This document shows positions 6,229 through 29,700 of a stretch of 64,000 nt of DNA, piece after piece (the stretch's first letter is position 1; every line of letters begins with the position of its first letter). The notes beneath the pieces are model-generated. The model saw only the letters and a program-made list of their open reading frames with translations. It did no database searches and was not told the DNA's origin. The DNA is from Deltaproteobacteria bacterium (GTDB taxonomy: Bacteria > Desulfobacterota > DSM-4660 > Desulfatiglandales > HGW-15): assembly GCA_016931115.1 (NCBI GenBank), contig JAFGFM010000037.1, positions 27-64,026 on the forward strand, given 5' to 3'. The position numbers and the translations under genes are program-made.

Positions 6229-7146
6229 TTATTTTGAGGTGTAGAACAGATTATCTCCATGTCTCTGTTCCTGAATAATGCCCTTTATCTTAAGCCCTTT
6301 GACCATCTGTTCTGTTTCAACCCTGCTGAAATTAAGGGCATTCGAGATGTCATCAATGGTTACTGGGCGTCTTTTGACCATCTCAAAAATCCTTTCTGCC
6401 CCTGAATCTGATATATTTCCCCTGCCCTTTATGGGTGATGGTGCAACGATCTCTGTATTGCCACCAAAGTATGCCTTTATCTCTTCGAGCCTCTCCTGAG
6501 TCAGCGGAAGGGCGCTTGTTTCAGCAGGGGGCCTTACAACCGTGTTGAGCTGCACCCTGTCAGGGGCAATATCCCATATTACCTTTTTAAGCCCGGAAAG
6601 CTCCTCCTCGCTGTCATTTATCCCTTTAAGCAGCACCACCTCAAGATAGTATCCCCTTTTAAAAAGCTTTCTTGTCTCTTTCAGGCCCTGTATAATCCTG
6701 TCAAGATCAAGGCCGGGGTGGGGCCTGTGGATCATATCATGTGTCTTTTTAAAGACCGAAGAGAGCGTTGGTAGAATGATATCAACGCCCCGGCATCTCT
6801 CCCTTACCTCCTCTTTCCAGAGCAGCGAACCGTTTGTGAGCAGGGTTAAGGGTATTTTTGTAATCTTTTTTATCTCAGAAATCAAGGCCCCTATATCAAG
6901 GTTAAGTGTCGGTTCACCTGAACCCGCTAGGGTTATTACATCAGGCGGGCTCTTTGATATGACATCCTCAAGCTCTTTAATTGTTTCCGCTATATTGATA
7001 AAAGAGGATGGCTCTGTAATAAGGTTAGTTGTCCTGCCTACCTCGCAGTAGATACAGTTGTAGCTGCATGTCTTGCATGGAACAAGATCAATGCCTAATG
7101 AAAGCCCGAGTCTCCTTGACGGGACAGGGCCAAAAATACGTGCCAC
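6229..7146 (-). CDS. Radical SAM protein with a C-terminal winged-helix-like tail
   Basis: 305 aa. It carries a CX3CX2C motif (CSYNCIYC) after GPVPSRRLGLSLGIDL. The substrate is unknown. Confidence 0.75.
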   Translation of the reverse strand: MARIFGPVPSRRLGLSLGIDLVPCKTCSYNCIYCEVGRTTNLITEPSSFINIAETIKELEDVISKSPPDVITLAGSGEPTLNLDIGALISEIKKITKIPLTLLTNGSLLWKEEVRERCRGVDIILPTLSSVFKKTHDMIHRPHPGLDLDRIIQGLKETRKLFKRGYYLEVVLLKGINDSEEELSGLKKVIWDIAPDRVQLNTVVRPPAETSALPLTQERLEEIKAYFGGNTEIVAPSPIKGRGNISDSGAERIFEMVKRRPVTIDDISNALNFSRVETEQMVKGLKIKGIIQEQRHGDNLFYTSK

Positions 7147-17946: not shown

Positions 17947-17984
17947 GACAAGGCATGCCTTGTCTCTACTAAAGAAAACATCAA
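17947..17984. repeat. Perfect 38-nt palindrome
   Basis: ctttagtagagacaaggca|tgccttgtctctactaaag. The two 19-nt arms are exactly complementary. Confidence 0.9.
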
Positions 17985-18001
17985 TAAGATGAAAAAAACG
18001 C

Positions 18002-26105: not shown

Positions 26106-26179
26106 GGGCGATTAGCTCAGATGGATAGAGCGCTGGCCTCCGGAGCCAAAGGCCGTGGGTTCGAATCCCGCATCGCCCA
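26106..26179 (+). tRNA. tRNA-Arg (anticodon CCG)
   Basis: I folded it by hand as a 74-nt cloverleaf. Acceptor GGGCGAT/ATCGCCC, D arm GCTC..GAGC, anticodon loop CTCCGGA (CCG), T arm GTGGG-TTCGAAT-CCCGC, discriminator A. No CCA is encoded. Confidence 0.9.
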
Positions 26180-26434
26180 TACCTTTTTAAAAATAACAGG
26201 CGTGGCCTCGGGGTCATCTGCGGCAAAGGGCCAGTAATTTTTAAACATATTATATGTTGTTTTTCCCAGCAACAGTGTATCTGAAGAGCGTAATCGTTCT
26301 GCATTATAATTATCAAAGCTTTCATCAGATGGATATGCAACCCTGCGGTAATCAAACAATGCCATAATATTTTTGTCAGCCCCTTCATAGAATCCATCCA
26401 GCGATATTATGTTACAGACAATTATTTTTCGCAT
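26180..26434 (-). pseudogene. 5' fragment of a RibD_C / dihydrofolate-reductase-family gene, truncated at the tRNA
   Basis: MRKIIVCNIISLDGFYEG...DTLLLGKTTYNMFKNYWP.. matches the first ~85 residues of ~180-aa RibD_C proteins. The rest of the track ORF (26117-26179) is antisense translation of the tRNA. Confidence 0.65.
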
Positions 26435-26453
26435 TGTTTTCTCCTTAAGAGAC

Positions 26454-26509
26454 TATAACCATTAACAGCCTTTATCTTACGGTGGCCATTAATTTAAAGC
26501 CACTTATAA
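26454..26509 (-). repeat. attC-like imperfect palindrome (candidate E1)
   Basis: Read on the minus strand it ends in GGTTATAG, 20 nt before ATG 26434. It has an inner stem GTGGC/GCCAC and overlaps the last codons of the upstream ORF. This is the weakest of the set. Confidence 0.2.
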
Positions 26510-26883
26510 CTTAAATCCAAATGATAGCTCCATTCCCCCTCACCAAGGGCTTCAATCACAATTCCTGGTTTTGACCAAGCACCATTTTCACTGACATAGC
26601 AAGATTGATATATAACTTTGCAGTTAATAAAACGACTTGAAACAATATTAACTGTGACATTACAGCTCTTTCCATTCTTTGATTTATATTGGTATACATG
26701 ATTCGAATGAAGCCAATCTCCACTACCATCATTGCGATAGTCTGTATCAGTAATAATTTTTCTACATTCTAAACCACTTGCACAGCTACAAGAATCTTCA
26801 CTTGTTAAAACTTTTGATAAAACATATGTAGAAAAACACAAGCCCATAAATATAAAGAATAGGATAAATTTAACTCGTTTCAT
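26494..26883 (-). CDS. Secreted Cys-rich protein (hypothetical)
   Basis: 129 aa with a clear signal peptide (MKRVKFILFFIFMGLCFSTYVLS) and 8 Cys in the mature part. SD AAGGAG upstream. Confidence 0.6.
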   Translation of the reverse strand: MKRVKFILFFIFMGLCFSTYVLSKVLTSEDSCSCASGLECRKIITDTDYRNDGSGDWLHSNHVYQYKSKNGKSCNVTVNIVSSRFINCKVIYQSCYVSENGAWSKPGIVIEALGEGEWSYHLDLSYKWL

Positions 26884-26958
26884 TGCTATCTCCTTTTTAA
26901 AATGGATTGTTCAGGAGTCTCCATATAAAAATAATATTGCGCTCAAAACCTTTCTAAT

Positions 26959-27044
26959 ATTAAACCACTTACTGCGCGGGTCGATCAGCATTACAGACCG
27001 ATCAGCTTTGTATCATCTTGTTCTTGTAGATGCAGAGGTTGTGC
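26959..27044 (-). repeat. attC-like imperfect palindrome (candidate E6)
   Basis: On the minus strand a GCACAACC box sits 13 nt after the TAA at 27058-27060. A direct repeat CGATCAGC x2 and a GGTC/GACC pair are internal, and the terminal box is GGTTTAAT. Confidence 0.25.
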
Positions 27045-27057
27045 AATATTCCTTACA

Positions 27058-27606
27058 TTAACGCTTATTTGGTAATACATAGTTCAACTCATTTTTTGGC
27101 AACCCTTTAACAATATGACGGAGAGGCATACCATAAAGATCTGCAAAAACCTGAAATGCCTCACCGGCTATTGAGCATTTTCTTGTTGACCAGCCAATCG
27201 CTACCCGTTCATATAGTTATGAAACATTAGGATTCATACCTTCACCCATAGCGTATGACCCACCGCTTTTTCTTATTTGAGAGCATAATTCCACCACAAT
27301 CGCCGCAGCTACACCACTGCCACGATATTCCGGCTTCACGTATAACCACTCAAGAACACCACCAAACTGGCCCCAAAACATATCATATTGACGCGTCCAT
27401 TGTCCCATCCCCAGAATAACGCTTTTTCTTTCAGCGATATATAGATGTGCTATAGGAGCCCCGTTAAAATAAGCCTGCTTGAGAGATGATTTATGCCGCT
27501 TCCAGTTTTCTGCAGGATGCCCCTTAACTAATTCATCAATCATACCAGCAATTTCATCAATATCAGATTCAACTGCAACCCTTACAACTAATTTATTTTC
27601 AGACAT
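27058..27606 (-). pseudogene. GNAT N-acetyltransferase interrupted by an in-frame TAA
   Basis: The track ORF (27217-27606, 129 aa) stops inside the C-terminal GNAT motif (..NPNVS*LYERVAIGW..). The same frame stays open for 52 more codons to the TAA at 27058-27060. Confidence 0.6.
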
Positions 27607-27719
27607 TTAATCTCCAATAATTTATGTATCTAATGGATATATTGTTATCCTAATACTGTTTTAATTTTATAAAGCCTTTCTAATATTTCTTCTGAAAGAT
27701 CATATGAAACAGCACTTGG

Positions 27720-27998
27720 TTACTTCCCACTATTGAAACCAATGTCAGCGATTCGTTTATCAGTTTGTAAATAAAGGTTTAGAAATTTTGGAGCAAGATT
27801 CTCGATTAATTCACAAAAATGTCTAATTGTATCTTCTGGCCTATCATAATGGCCTGGGCCGCTAAGTGAAACCCGGTATTTATTTTCAACCCATCGGTTG
27901 AGCTGAAGGACCATCTCCTTTTTCAATTCCTTTACCAGTTCAGTTAGGTCTTCGCTGGATTCAATTTCAAAATCTGTTGTTATGTATTCAATATCCAT
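27720..27998 (-). CDS. Hypothetical 92-aa acidic protein
   Basis: Intact ORF co-oriented with its neighbours. I recognise no family. Confidence 0.45.
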   Translation of the reverse strand: MDIEYITTDFEIESSEDLTELVKELKKEMVLQLNRWVENKYRVSLSGPGHYDRPEDTIRHFCELIENLAPKFLNLYLQTDKRIADIGFNSGK

Positions 27999-28028
27999 TT
28001 TAAAATTACCGATGCGGATCAGGCGCAG

Positions 28029-28514
28029 CTATTTAATATTGTCCGTATCCGGCCTGTTTTGTGATTGTTTGCTCTCCGGTTTCTTGATGGTTATCGACTC
28101 GCCGTTTATTCCAGCGTAGAACACGAGAATCTCTGCTGGCTCATCACCCTCGTTCTTTCCATAATGCTATGTATCCACAACCTCAACTATTGGATCATCT
28201 GCTTTCAGATGTAACACTTGACCACTCTCCGTAGTGACAGTTAGTTGGCCTTTGAGAAGAACACCTGCATTGATAACTGGATGCGTGTGCATCGGAAGAT
28301 TACACCCATGTGGAATCGTGATTTTCAGAATCGTGACCTCTGGCGTACCTGTCTTGTATGCCGGCAACGGATTACCATTCCAGCTTTCGGTCGACTTTAC
28401 CAACTGAACTGATCGCACATCATTAACATATTTCGATGATTCGCAACCCGCAACCAGGATGATAGACAATAAACAGCATGCTAATTTCTTCATTCTCGTT
28501 TCGTCTTTACACAT
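28029..28514 (-). pseudogene. Lipoprotein cupin interrupted by an in-frame TAG
   Basis: Lipobox LVAGC and cupin motif PMHTHPVINAGVLLKGQL. The TAG at 28167-28169 lies where I expect Trp (..[24 protein letters not shown]..), and the frame continues 45 codons to the TAG at 28029-28031. Confidence 0.65.
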
Positions 28515-28517
28515 GTG

Positions 28518-28573
28518 CTGATAACCGGTTTAACAAGCTTTTTGCGAAATCCGGCTGATTATAGGGTTAGCAG
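28518..28573 (-). repeat. attC-like imperfect palindrome (candidate E2) filling a whole intergenic spacer
   Basis: The terminal boxes 28518-28526 (CTGATAACC) and 28565-28573 (GGTTAGCAG) are complementary at 8 of 9 positions, with an inner CCGG..CCGG stem. The element spans the gap between stop 28575 and start 28514. Confidence 0.35.
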
Positions 28574-28574
28574 T

Positions 28575-29072
28575 TCATTTTATCTGAAATAAATTAAGCC
28601 TTTTAACTGTTTTTTGTAAAGTATACTCTACTTCCAATTCATAATGTTTTATTTCATAAAAATCTATTATTTCACTATCGTCAGTATCACTCTTTTTCGG
28701 CATACCCAGCAACTCATTAATTTCACTTTTAGCTGTTGTTTTTTTTACTTGAAGTGCTTTTGCATCAGGTGCGATAAGTTTTACTACTGTTGTATCAAAC
28801 GGTGTGTATTCATCTTTTTGTATTGCAATAGCAAAATACCCAATTACCCCATCATAAATTTCAATTAAACATCCCAGAGCATCATATTGAAATGAGTTGT
28901 CCCGAAATGGATTTTTATTATTTGGTTTACCGAAGCTCATAAGTGTTTCGAGTTTATCTCCAATTTTAATCTGATTAAGACGAAAATCCCTCAAATCAAG
29001 TGTCAGGGGCATTCTCTTCCATTGCGGCCAGGATTTACTAGGATCTTTATTAAAAATATTAAATATACCCAT
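28575..29072 (-). CDS. Hypothetical 165-aa protein (very AT-rich)
   Basis: Intact ORF with no recognisable family. Its composition is strongly atypical for the window. Confidence 0.5.
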   Translation of the reverse strand: MGIFNIFNKDPSKSWPQWKRMPLTLDLRDFRLNQIKIGDKLETLMSFGKPNNKNPFRDNSFQYDALGCLIEIYDGVIGYFAIAIQKDEYTPFDTTVVKLIAPDAKALQVKKTTAKSEINELLGMPKKSDTDDSEIIDFYEIKHYELEVEYTLQKTVKRLNLFQIK

Positions 29073-29083
29073 AATTTTCTACC

Positions 29084-29138
29084 CATAACCAACCTGGCGT
29101 GGTGTTTAGCCAGCTCTGCGTTTATTAGATTGTTGTGC
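29084..29138 (-). repeat. attC-like imperfect palindrome (candidate E3)
   Basis: On the minus strand a GCACAAC box sits 3 nt after the TAA at 29142-29144. The inner stem is CTGGC-N10-GCCAG (29094-29113), and the terminal GGTTATGG box lies 10 nt before ATG 29072. Confidence 0.3.
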
Positions 29139-29141
29139 GAT

Positions 29142-29276
29142 TTATATGAAGTATTCTTTATGTGCCTTGATGTATTCCATATTTAATGCATTTAAGTCTT
29201 CTTCATATTCATTAATATCCAGCTTTTTTTCAGGGACAATTTCTTTTTTCCCAAATATCTTTTTGAATATATTCAT
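29142..29276 (-). CDS. Possible 44-aa ORF (MNIFKKIFGKKEIVPEKK..)
   Basis: Found by my own translation; it is below the track's size cut-off. It is co-oriented with the islet genes but has no convincing SD. Confidence 0.2.
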   Translation of the reverse strand: MNIFKKIFGKKEIVPEKKLDINEYEEDLNALNMEYIKAHKEYFI

Positions 29277-29700
29277 AGTACGTTCCCTTTCATTACAAAA
29301 AATGAAAAACCAAAAACCGATATTTTTGGATAAGCACTAACTAATTATTATTTAAAGGAAATCTAATATTGAAGCAAAAGGATAATACTCAACTAAAAAA
29401 TAATTATCAAATTTAAAAGCAGTATCTTTGATAAAATCTCAGTGCACAGGATGAAAGGGGCACAGGTCCGCCTTCGCTGAATGCTACACCGGGACAAGCG
29501 GGGAATGGCAAAAACAATGAACATCGAACATCGAATGAAAAAACAGATCCCTGTGGCGGTCAATAAACAATTGGAACCGGCAAATTTCTTGCTATTTATG
29601 CCCCCTTTGATATAAAAATTGGATATTTTTAAAATGCGTACTGCAAAACCCATAAGGCTTATGTTAGACCAGCCTGTATAAGTTATTTGAGGGAAAAATT

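Follow-up and report, generated by a model that had tools for sequence, protein, structure and literature searches.

What is the AT-rich run of short genes that lies between a tRNA-Arg(CCG) gene and hisC in an uncultured Desulfatiglans, and how did it come to lie there? We addressed this question in a window of 64,000 nucleotides, the analysed part of contig C61 of a 5.18-Mb metagenome-assembled genome (MAG; genome G000) in 240 contigs. The original prediction, made from this sequence, offered two origins for the islet, an old acquisition next to the tRNA gene or a cassette array decaying in place. The second is borne out by attC-type sites, cassette-wise turnover and five broken genes, and the first is not. 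Specifically, the segment from 26195 to 29579 is very probably the eroded relic of an integron cassette array of the CALIN (cluster of attC sites without integron integrases) type, located upstream of hisC and without an integrase of its own.

attC-type sites and recurrent cassettes in the islet

A home-made attC scanner, which combined AAC...GTT pairing with folding energy, proved neither sensitive nor specific in AT-rich DNA, and covariance models, trained on sites from other genomes only, were used instead. The first model (R1) was built from nine attC sites of G010, a genome of the same genus whose integron (locus L064) consists of intI followed by more than 25 co-oriented cassettes with small open reading frames (ORFs) and attC sites that carry R'' ..TAAC and R' CGTTA... 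These nine sites align into a consensus hairpin of 21 pairs, 11 of which covary, and R1 detects 65 strand-consistent sites in the arrays of relatives. The second model (R2) was built from 37 sites at other loci, the window and its orthologues being excluded. The two best R1 matches in the window, 28507–28572 and 29069–29138, are both on the minus strand. Likewise, the three best R2 matches of the 64-kb window, for which 128 kb of strand was searched, all lie inside the islet, on the minus strand and directly 3' of ORFs (Table 1). The best R2 match outside the islet scores 13.8 bits and falls inside a plus-strand coding gene, and weak model matches at 48.1–49.5 kb, also inside plus-strand coding genes, were set aside as noise. 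Additionally, R2 gives no match in the hisC loci of other genomes that served as controls (794 kb).

In the R1 and R2 alignments, the R'' of the islet sites reads GCACAAC or TGCTAAC, and their L arms are paired and contain bulges. The site after orf44 is without the R' GTT and reads G-TAG or ATT at this point (G-TAGAA, compared with GTTAGAA in G008:C174), and the site after orf165 has GTG in place of the R' GTT. The site after the GNAT gene keeps its R'' GCACAAC, has a degraded 3' part and is homologous to the attC that follows an intact GNAT gene in G004:C136 (27 bits). Within the orf165 site, the 53 nt at 28518–28570 match one attC of the G010 integron with 87% identity (blastn, E 5e-9), the sole significant match when the G010 spacers are compared with the window; this type of attC is dispersed through the genus.

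Additionally, the genes of the islet recur as mobile units. The RibD_C, GNAT, cupin, orf165 and DMP19-like genes recur elsewhere in the genus, each as a single cassette of another array, so that the same ORF occurs as an independent unit in different attC-bounded arrays. In particular, GNAT (91% identity), cupin (75%) and RibD_C (93%) recur on G004 and G008 contigs that bear same-strand R1 attC sites, and some of the recurring ORFs are directly bounded by attC. The region adjacent to hisC in G004 (C211) holds an array that is at least 5 kb long and has a full-length RibD_C gene among its members. For orf165, six relatives were found among 5.8 billion proteins, 78–92% identical and located in at least four different same-strand small-ORF arrays, and its DNA homology is confined to 29080–28566, starting 8 nt ahead of the ATG and ending about 10 nt past the stop codon.

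Several observations weigh against this interpretation. The islet sites score 16–24 bits, far below the strongest of the intact sites, which range from 25 to 79 bits, and they fall below the whole-genome E-value threshold, which is passed in this genome by 12 other attC sites, spread over ten other contigs. None of the three sites has the R' core 5'-GTTRRRY-3' with its canonical GTT crossover triplet, and four junctions (hisC–orf44, cupin–orf92, orf92–GNAT and Cys129–RibD_C) have no recognisable attC. The genome, moreover, is a 240-contig MAG, and the in-frame stops described below are seen in the assembly only. The GTT triplet is the site at which integron integrases cut, and because it has been lost, the islet sites are probably relics that no longer recombine. 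On the other hand, CALINs are defined by at least two same-strand attC sites less than 4 kb apart with no intI gene or pseudogene nearby (PMC4889954; IntegronFinder 2, PMC9024848), and the islet has three same-strand sites within 2.2 kb, as detected with genus-specific covariance models and not with those of IntegronFinder.

Table 1. Features of the islet, of its two borders and of the integron integrase; positions are those of the window unless a contig is named.
Feature	Position	Strand	Details
tRNA-Arg(CCG)	26106–26179	+	ARAGORN; Rfam tRNA, 66 bits; neighbour of the islet
Junction of tRNA 3' flank and RibD_C cassette interior	26194–26195	.	Deletion or rearrangement
RibD_C-family reductase cassette, 5' fragment	26195–26434	-	About 80 of 207 codons left
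Cys129, apparently intact	26494–26883	-	N-terminal hydrophobic helix, all-beta body
attC relic after GNAT	26982–27044	-	R2 16.4 bits, E 0.07 (third in window)
GNAT acetyltransferase cassette, pseudogene	27058–27606	-	In-frame TAA at 27217–27219
orf92, nonsense-shortened ORFan	27645–27998	-	TAA at 27720–27722
Lipoprotein cupin cassette, pseudogene	28029–28514	-	In-frame TAG at 28167–28169; Pfam Cupin_2
attC after orf165	28508–28572	-	R1 22.4 bits, E 0.002; R2 20.6 bits, E 4.4e-3
orf165, intact ORFan cassette	28575–29072	-	Six relatives
attC after orf44	29069–29138	-	R2 24.1 bits, E 4.5e-4 (best in window); R1 15.1 bits
orf44, in-frame internal-deletion remnant of DMP19-family cassette gene	29142–29276	-	
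AT-rich repeated element at array head	29338–29426	-	Promoter-like TTGATA-17-TATTAT at 29410–29382 faces the cassettes
Right border	29579–29635	+	G003/G006 homology resumes; hisC promoter region, promoter-like site at 29607–29635
Integron integrase (IntI)	G000:C146 5186–6625		Open N-terminal extension of about 165 residues; stop is the contig's last codon, at most 3 bases from its end

Gene lesions, cassette turnover and the integrase

All seven short ORFs of the original prediction are present on the minus strand, and every cassette reads away from hisC. Three of the seven had been counted as inactivated; judged from the assembled sequence, at least five are broken, one by truncation, three by nonsense codons and one by an internal deletion. 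The RibD_C reductase gene, rightly called a fragment, has a full-length homologue of 207 aa that is 92% identical over the fragment (residues 3–87 of the G004 gene), and its missing 3' part is found nowhere in the MAG. For the GNAT gene, an intact 182-aa copy in G004:C136, 90% identical, has Lys at the TAA codon of the window. Similarly, the homologue of orf92 in L077 has 133 aa, is 91% identical and has Glu at the TAA codon, and the intact 172-aa cupin in G004:C70 has Trp at the TAG codon (VVDTWHYG). Residues 1–22 of orf44 match the first 22 codons, and residues 23–44 the last 22 codons, of the 171-aa DMP19 gene that L050 has at this place, and the two ends of a 182-aa G008 gene are matched as well. 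This leaves orf165 and Cys129 as the only ORFs that look intact, so that of the three orphans taken to be intact (129, 92 and 165 aa), the first and the last keep this status and orf92 loses it, having been shortened from 133 aa.

Pfam backs the GNAT and cupin assignments and weakly backs RibD_C, and NCBIfam gives no match above its cut-offs for the seven ORFs. No close homologue of Cys129 was found; it has 34 remote relatives, mostly of 120–135 aa, and its C-terminal part also matches repeated stretches in large proteins with Pfam Ig-like (Big_13/Big_6) domains. Its AlphaFold2 model (pLDDT 65) has no fold match in the PDB, the best E value being 0.18. Our most likely guess is that Cys129 is a small secreted or envelope protein. 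The AlphaFold2 model of orf165 (pLDDT 37) is unusable.

The same locus in close relatives (L050 and L077/L078) is about 92% identical to the window and differs from it by whole genes. L077 and L078 diverge at the 5' boundary of the GNAT cassette (27622/27623; for L077 exactly at 27623), and for L050 the break comes at about 28002, immediately ahead of orf92; these breakpoints coincide with cassette boundaries or lie a few nt from them. L050 also has an extra 76-aa gene and a PIN-domain gene (6266–6854), possibly a toxin–antitoxin pair, and the two are located between the hisC promoter and an intact DMP19-family cassette.

The integron integrase of this genome is canonical and full-length, and it is encoded on contig C146, away from the islet. 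It scores 369.6 bits against TIGR02249 (cut-off 265), and 13 of 21 relatives also have an IntI above this cut-off; canonical integrons are thus common in Desulfatiglans, and the six papers of the searched library in which both integrons and Desulfatiglans are named, by titles and term counts, appear not to describe them. C146 (6.6 kb) has no cassette-like array and thus offered no sites for training the models, and the 5 kb upstream of IntI hold same-strand genes. As these genes are not cassette-like, the cassette array that belongs to this IntI was not assembled together with it. In the window, tblastn with the genome's own IntI reveals no intI remnant (best E 0.076, 16 kb from the islet), Pfam searches of the flanking genes show no integron integrase either, and neither an intI gene within 4 kb nor an intI pseudogene within 10 kb accompanies the attC-type sites. 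A complete integron would have intI beside attI and a cassette promoter (Pc) at the head of the array, whereas the head of this array abuts the hisC promoter.

We propose that promoterless single ORFs, each with its attC hairpin, would have been stacked head to tail by IntI-mediated attC recombination, as in characterised integrons (PMC4889954). The integrase may have acted in trans from another contig, possibly starting at a secondary genomic site; alternatively, the array could have been split off an integron by rearrangement. A later deletion or rearrangement took away the distal end of the array, so that the 3' flank of tRNA-Arg now joins the middle of the RibD_C cassette.

Such an integrase might still be at work, in which case the array would be a living reservoir, with the IntI of C146 excising and reshuffling its cassettes in trans. 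This is in line with the full-length IntI above its family cut-off and with the whole-cassette differences of L050 and L077, whose breakpoints at cassette boundaries indicate turnover until recently. The GTT triplet, however, is missing from every recognisable attC site of the islet, and the five broken genes argue against selection on its content. Hence, we consider a still active array unlikely, and an array that is now recombinationally inert appears to be the better description.

Three unrelated attC cores accompany the orf165 cassette, which occurs in the window (28508–29080) and in arrays L044 (333–899), L045 (2236–2814) and L046 (7993–8600). The orf165 ORFs of these arrays are 84–94% identical (L044 versus L045, 93%), and the stretch of identity extends from the G|TT of the upstream R' to 3–4 nt past the AAC of R''. 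In a canonical integrase crossover an ORF cannot be parted from its own attC core, and such a crossover does not explain identity that ends just after R''. Tentatively, and with considerable doubt, the orf165 cassette may record a replacement of the attC core, through hairpin-templated gene conversion between attC sites, rare top-strand recombination at R'' or repeated cassette genesis. If so, core replacement would bear on how cassettes acquire attC and on why sites homogenise within arrays.

The tRNA-Arg–hisC interval

The tRNA-Arg(CCG) gene named in the original prediction is confirmed by ARAGORN and Rfam, and it is the sole match of the Rfam scan. As had been proposed, the sequence after it is AT-rich. 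Specifically, the GC content of 26195–29579 is 36.8%, compared with a genome mean of 42.9% (standard deviation 2.75, windows of the same size), which corresponds to the 2.1st percentile, and in tetranucleotide distance the segment ranks within the top 2.1% of genome windows. The AT-richness was overstated for 28600–28700, described as almost free of G/C and measured at 25.7% GC; the lowest value for 100 nt, 18%, is reached from 29338. The extent also needs correction, from 26180–29400 to a variable segment that runs from 26195 to about 29579. Bona fide arrays of relatives are equally AT-rich, as in G010, where the array has 34–36% GC and its flank 43%. Genes conserved in place in related genomes and a composition like that of the flanks were the two observations named beforehand as refuting an acquired islet, and neither was made.

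The position of the islet at a tRNA 3' end, its AT-richness, its strain specificity and the much shorter tRNA–hisC spacers of two relatives would also suit the site-specific insertion of a genomic island at the 3' end of tRNA-Arg(CCG), followed by loss of the integrase and of the far repeat. The marks of that class are not there: Pfam, PADLOC and NCBIfam searches of the islet ORFs return no integrase, transposase, phage gene or credible defence family, in agreement with the tblastn search and with the absence that had been noted from the sequence, and no repeat of the tRNA 3' end, likewise noted as missing, occurs anywhere in the window with up to 3 mismatches. The only PADLOC match, a HORMA model on Cys129 (E 0.004), is weak and was judged not credible.

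In addition, the border on the tRNA side cuts a gene that is full-length in other arrays. The homology of G006 and G007 to the tRNA flank ends at 26194, and the full-length RibD_C homology of G004:C211 and G008:C168 starts at 26194, so that the cassette is cut 15 nt past the tRNA. An inversion was considered and rejected; neither the 3' half of RibD_C nor a reciprocal junction was found in the genome.

Two genomes of the genus, G003 and G006, share the order methyltransferase, zinc-ribbon ORF, tRNA-Arg, hisC and cmk. Their distance from the tRNA to the hisC promoter is about 125 bp and about 530 bp, respectively, and their homology to the window stops at 26184–26194 and resumes at 29579. Among 38 hisC loci of other genomes scanned for tRNAs, only these two have tRNA-Arg next to hisC. 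In five other genomes of the genus (G001, G002, G004, G007 and G010; loci L036, L038 and L040–L042), tRNA-Arg is followed by a core block of ykoF-like, ahb, hemB, ClpX-like, purL and purQ genes, the arrangement that prevails in the genus. The tRNA–hisC adjacency is therefore derived and confined to a subclade. The MAG has its own copy of the ykoF-like/ahb/hemB/purL/purQ block on contig C21, at about 22850. These orders mark a genus-level rearrangement with its breakpoint just 3' of tRNA-Arg (26180–26194).

The short spacers are informative in themselves. On the tRNA side, the G003 sequence corresponds to the last 16 codons of the 154-aa gene next after RibD_C in the arrays of G004 and G008. 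Because G003 keeps this cassette 3' end, the array had already reached the tRNA in the common ancestor of G000 and G003, and probably of G006. To judge from this sequence comparison, the seemingly empty sites of G003 and G006 are deletion scars and not unoccupied att sites, different deletions having removed different parts of the array. Furthermore, the G004 array adjoins hisC on a contig that does not reach a tRNA-Arg gene. Taken together, these findings indicate that the tRNA is not an integration target, and a tRNA-borne island is extremely improbable.

Hardly more credible is an intergenic dump, in which illegitimate recombination would have gathered unrelated small genes and the hairpins would be terminators or REP-like (repetitive extragenic palindromic) chance lookalikes of attC: the weak attC scores, the four junctions without a site, and a terminator-like hairpin and dispersed repeats in the region fit it, but the hairpins are homologous in sequence to attC of an integrase-linked integron of the same genus, are the top three model matches in 128 kb of strand with the correct strand and position, and accompany ORFs that recur in attC-containing arrays elsewhere, some of them directly bounded.

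At the head of the relic array, the AT-rich element (29338–29426) has a counterpart with 78% identity in G004:C211, where it likewise occupies this position next to hisC. Further copies are present in G005, G007 and G010, and also on G000:C176, 0.8 kb from an attC. Its promoter-like sequence suggests, weakly, that it may drive residual expression of the cassettes.

Several other repeated sequences were noted. Positions 27671–27687 and 26945–26961 were grouped with the AT-rich head element; the motif AATATTAGAAAGGCTTT at 27671–27687 is coding (EEILERLYK) in the intact 133-aa homologue of orf92 and is not a regulatory site. A short stretch at 29501–29541, which includes the AACATCG tandem, is 90% identical to G000:C29 4616–4654 and is a small dispersed repeat. 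A 38-nt perfect palindrome at 17964–17999 is a dispersed REP-like repeat, and G004:C211 6490–6527 matches this palindrome by blastn, as well as dozens of other contigs of the MAG (G000), with 94–100% identity. The tRNA–hisC spacer of G006 (L035, reverse strand, about 412–461) contains a 50-nt element that matches a dozen contigs of the MAG (G000) with 86–100% identity and represents a further dispersed repeat family.

Comparison with known systems

The islet should accordingly be annotated as integron debris, most of whose genes are pseudogenes, and not as a tRNA-borne island or a defence locus. Five related genomes or contigs together form a stepwise erosion series of an array without integrase, with whole-cassette turnover, point nonsense mutations, internal deletions, loss of GTT and collapse to a 125-bp scar as its steps. 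Such a series agrees with the published view of CALINs as a stage that follows gene capture and precedes either loss or domestication.

Unlike a tRNA-linked island, with which it shares its place at a tRNA 3' end, its AT-richness and its strain variability, the islet has no integrase and no tRNA-derived repeat, and the point where it joins the tRNA flank is a deletion scar of secondary origin. The insertion of cassettes at secondary genomic sites (attG, or SALIN, the name for a single attC site without integron integrase; bioRxiv 10.1101/2022.09.11.507474) suggests how an integrase located elsewhere in the genome could have seeded an array without attI upstream of hisC; in contrast to such a case, the head of the islet is a conserved AT-rich element and not a demonstrated attG.

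With sedentary chromosomal integrons, such as the Vibrio superintegron and the G010 integron (L064), the islet shares the attC family (87% identity at one site), co-oriented single-ORF cassettes and AT-richness, and the orthologous array L050 adds the possible toxin–antitoxin pair of the PIN-domain and 76-aa genes. It differs from them in that intI, and apparently attI and Pc, are absent from its side and the seven cassettes that are left are decaying and not maintained.

The closest likeness is to CALINs, for which the degradation or splitting of integrons, or insertion at secondary sites, has been proposed as the origin (PMC4889954; PMC9024848). As in a CALIN, several same-strand attC-type sites lie less than 4 kb from one another, the cassettes are mostly ORFans, and the IntI of the genome is located elsewhere. 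The islet departs from the type in its degraded sites, with the R' GTT gone and low scores, in the predominance of pseudogenes among its cassettes and in the truncation of one end by a deletion, and a default IntegronFinder run might miss such a relic. The islet is thus a degraded case of an already known class, the CALIN or integron cassette array.

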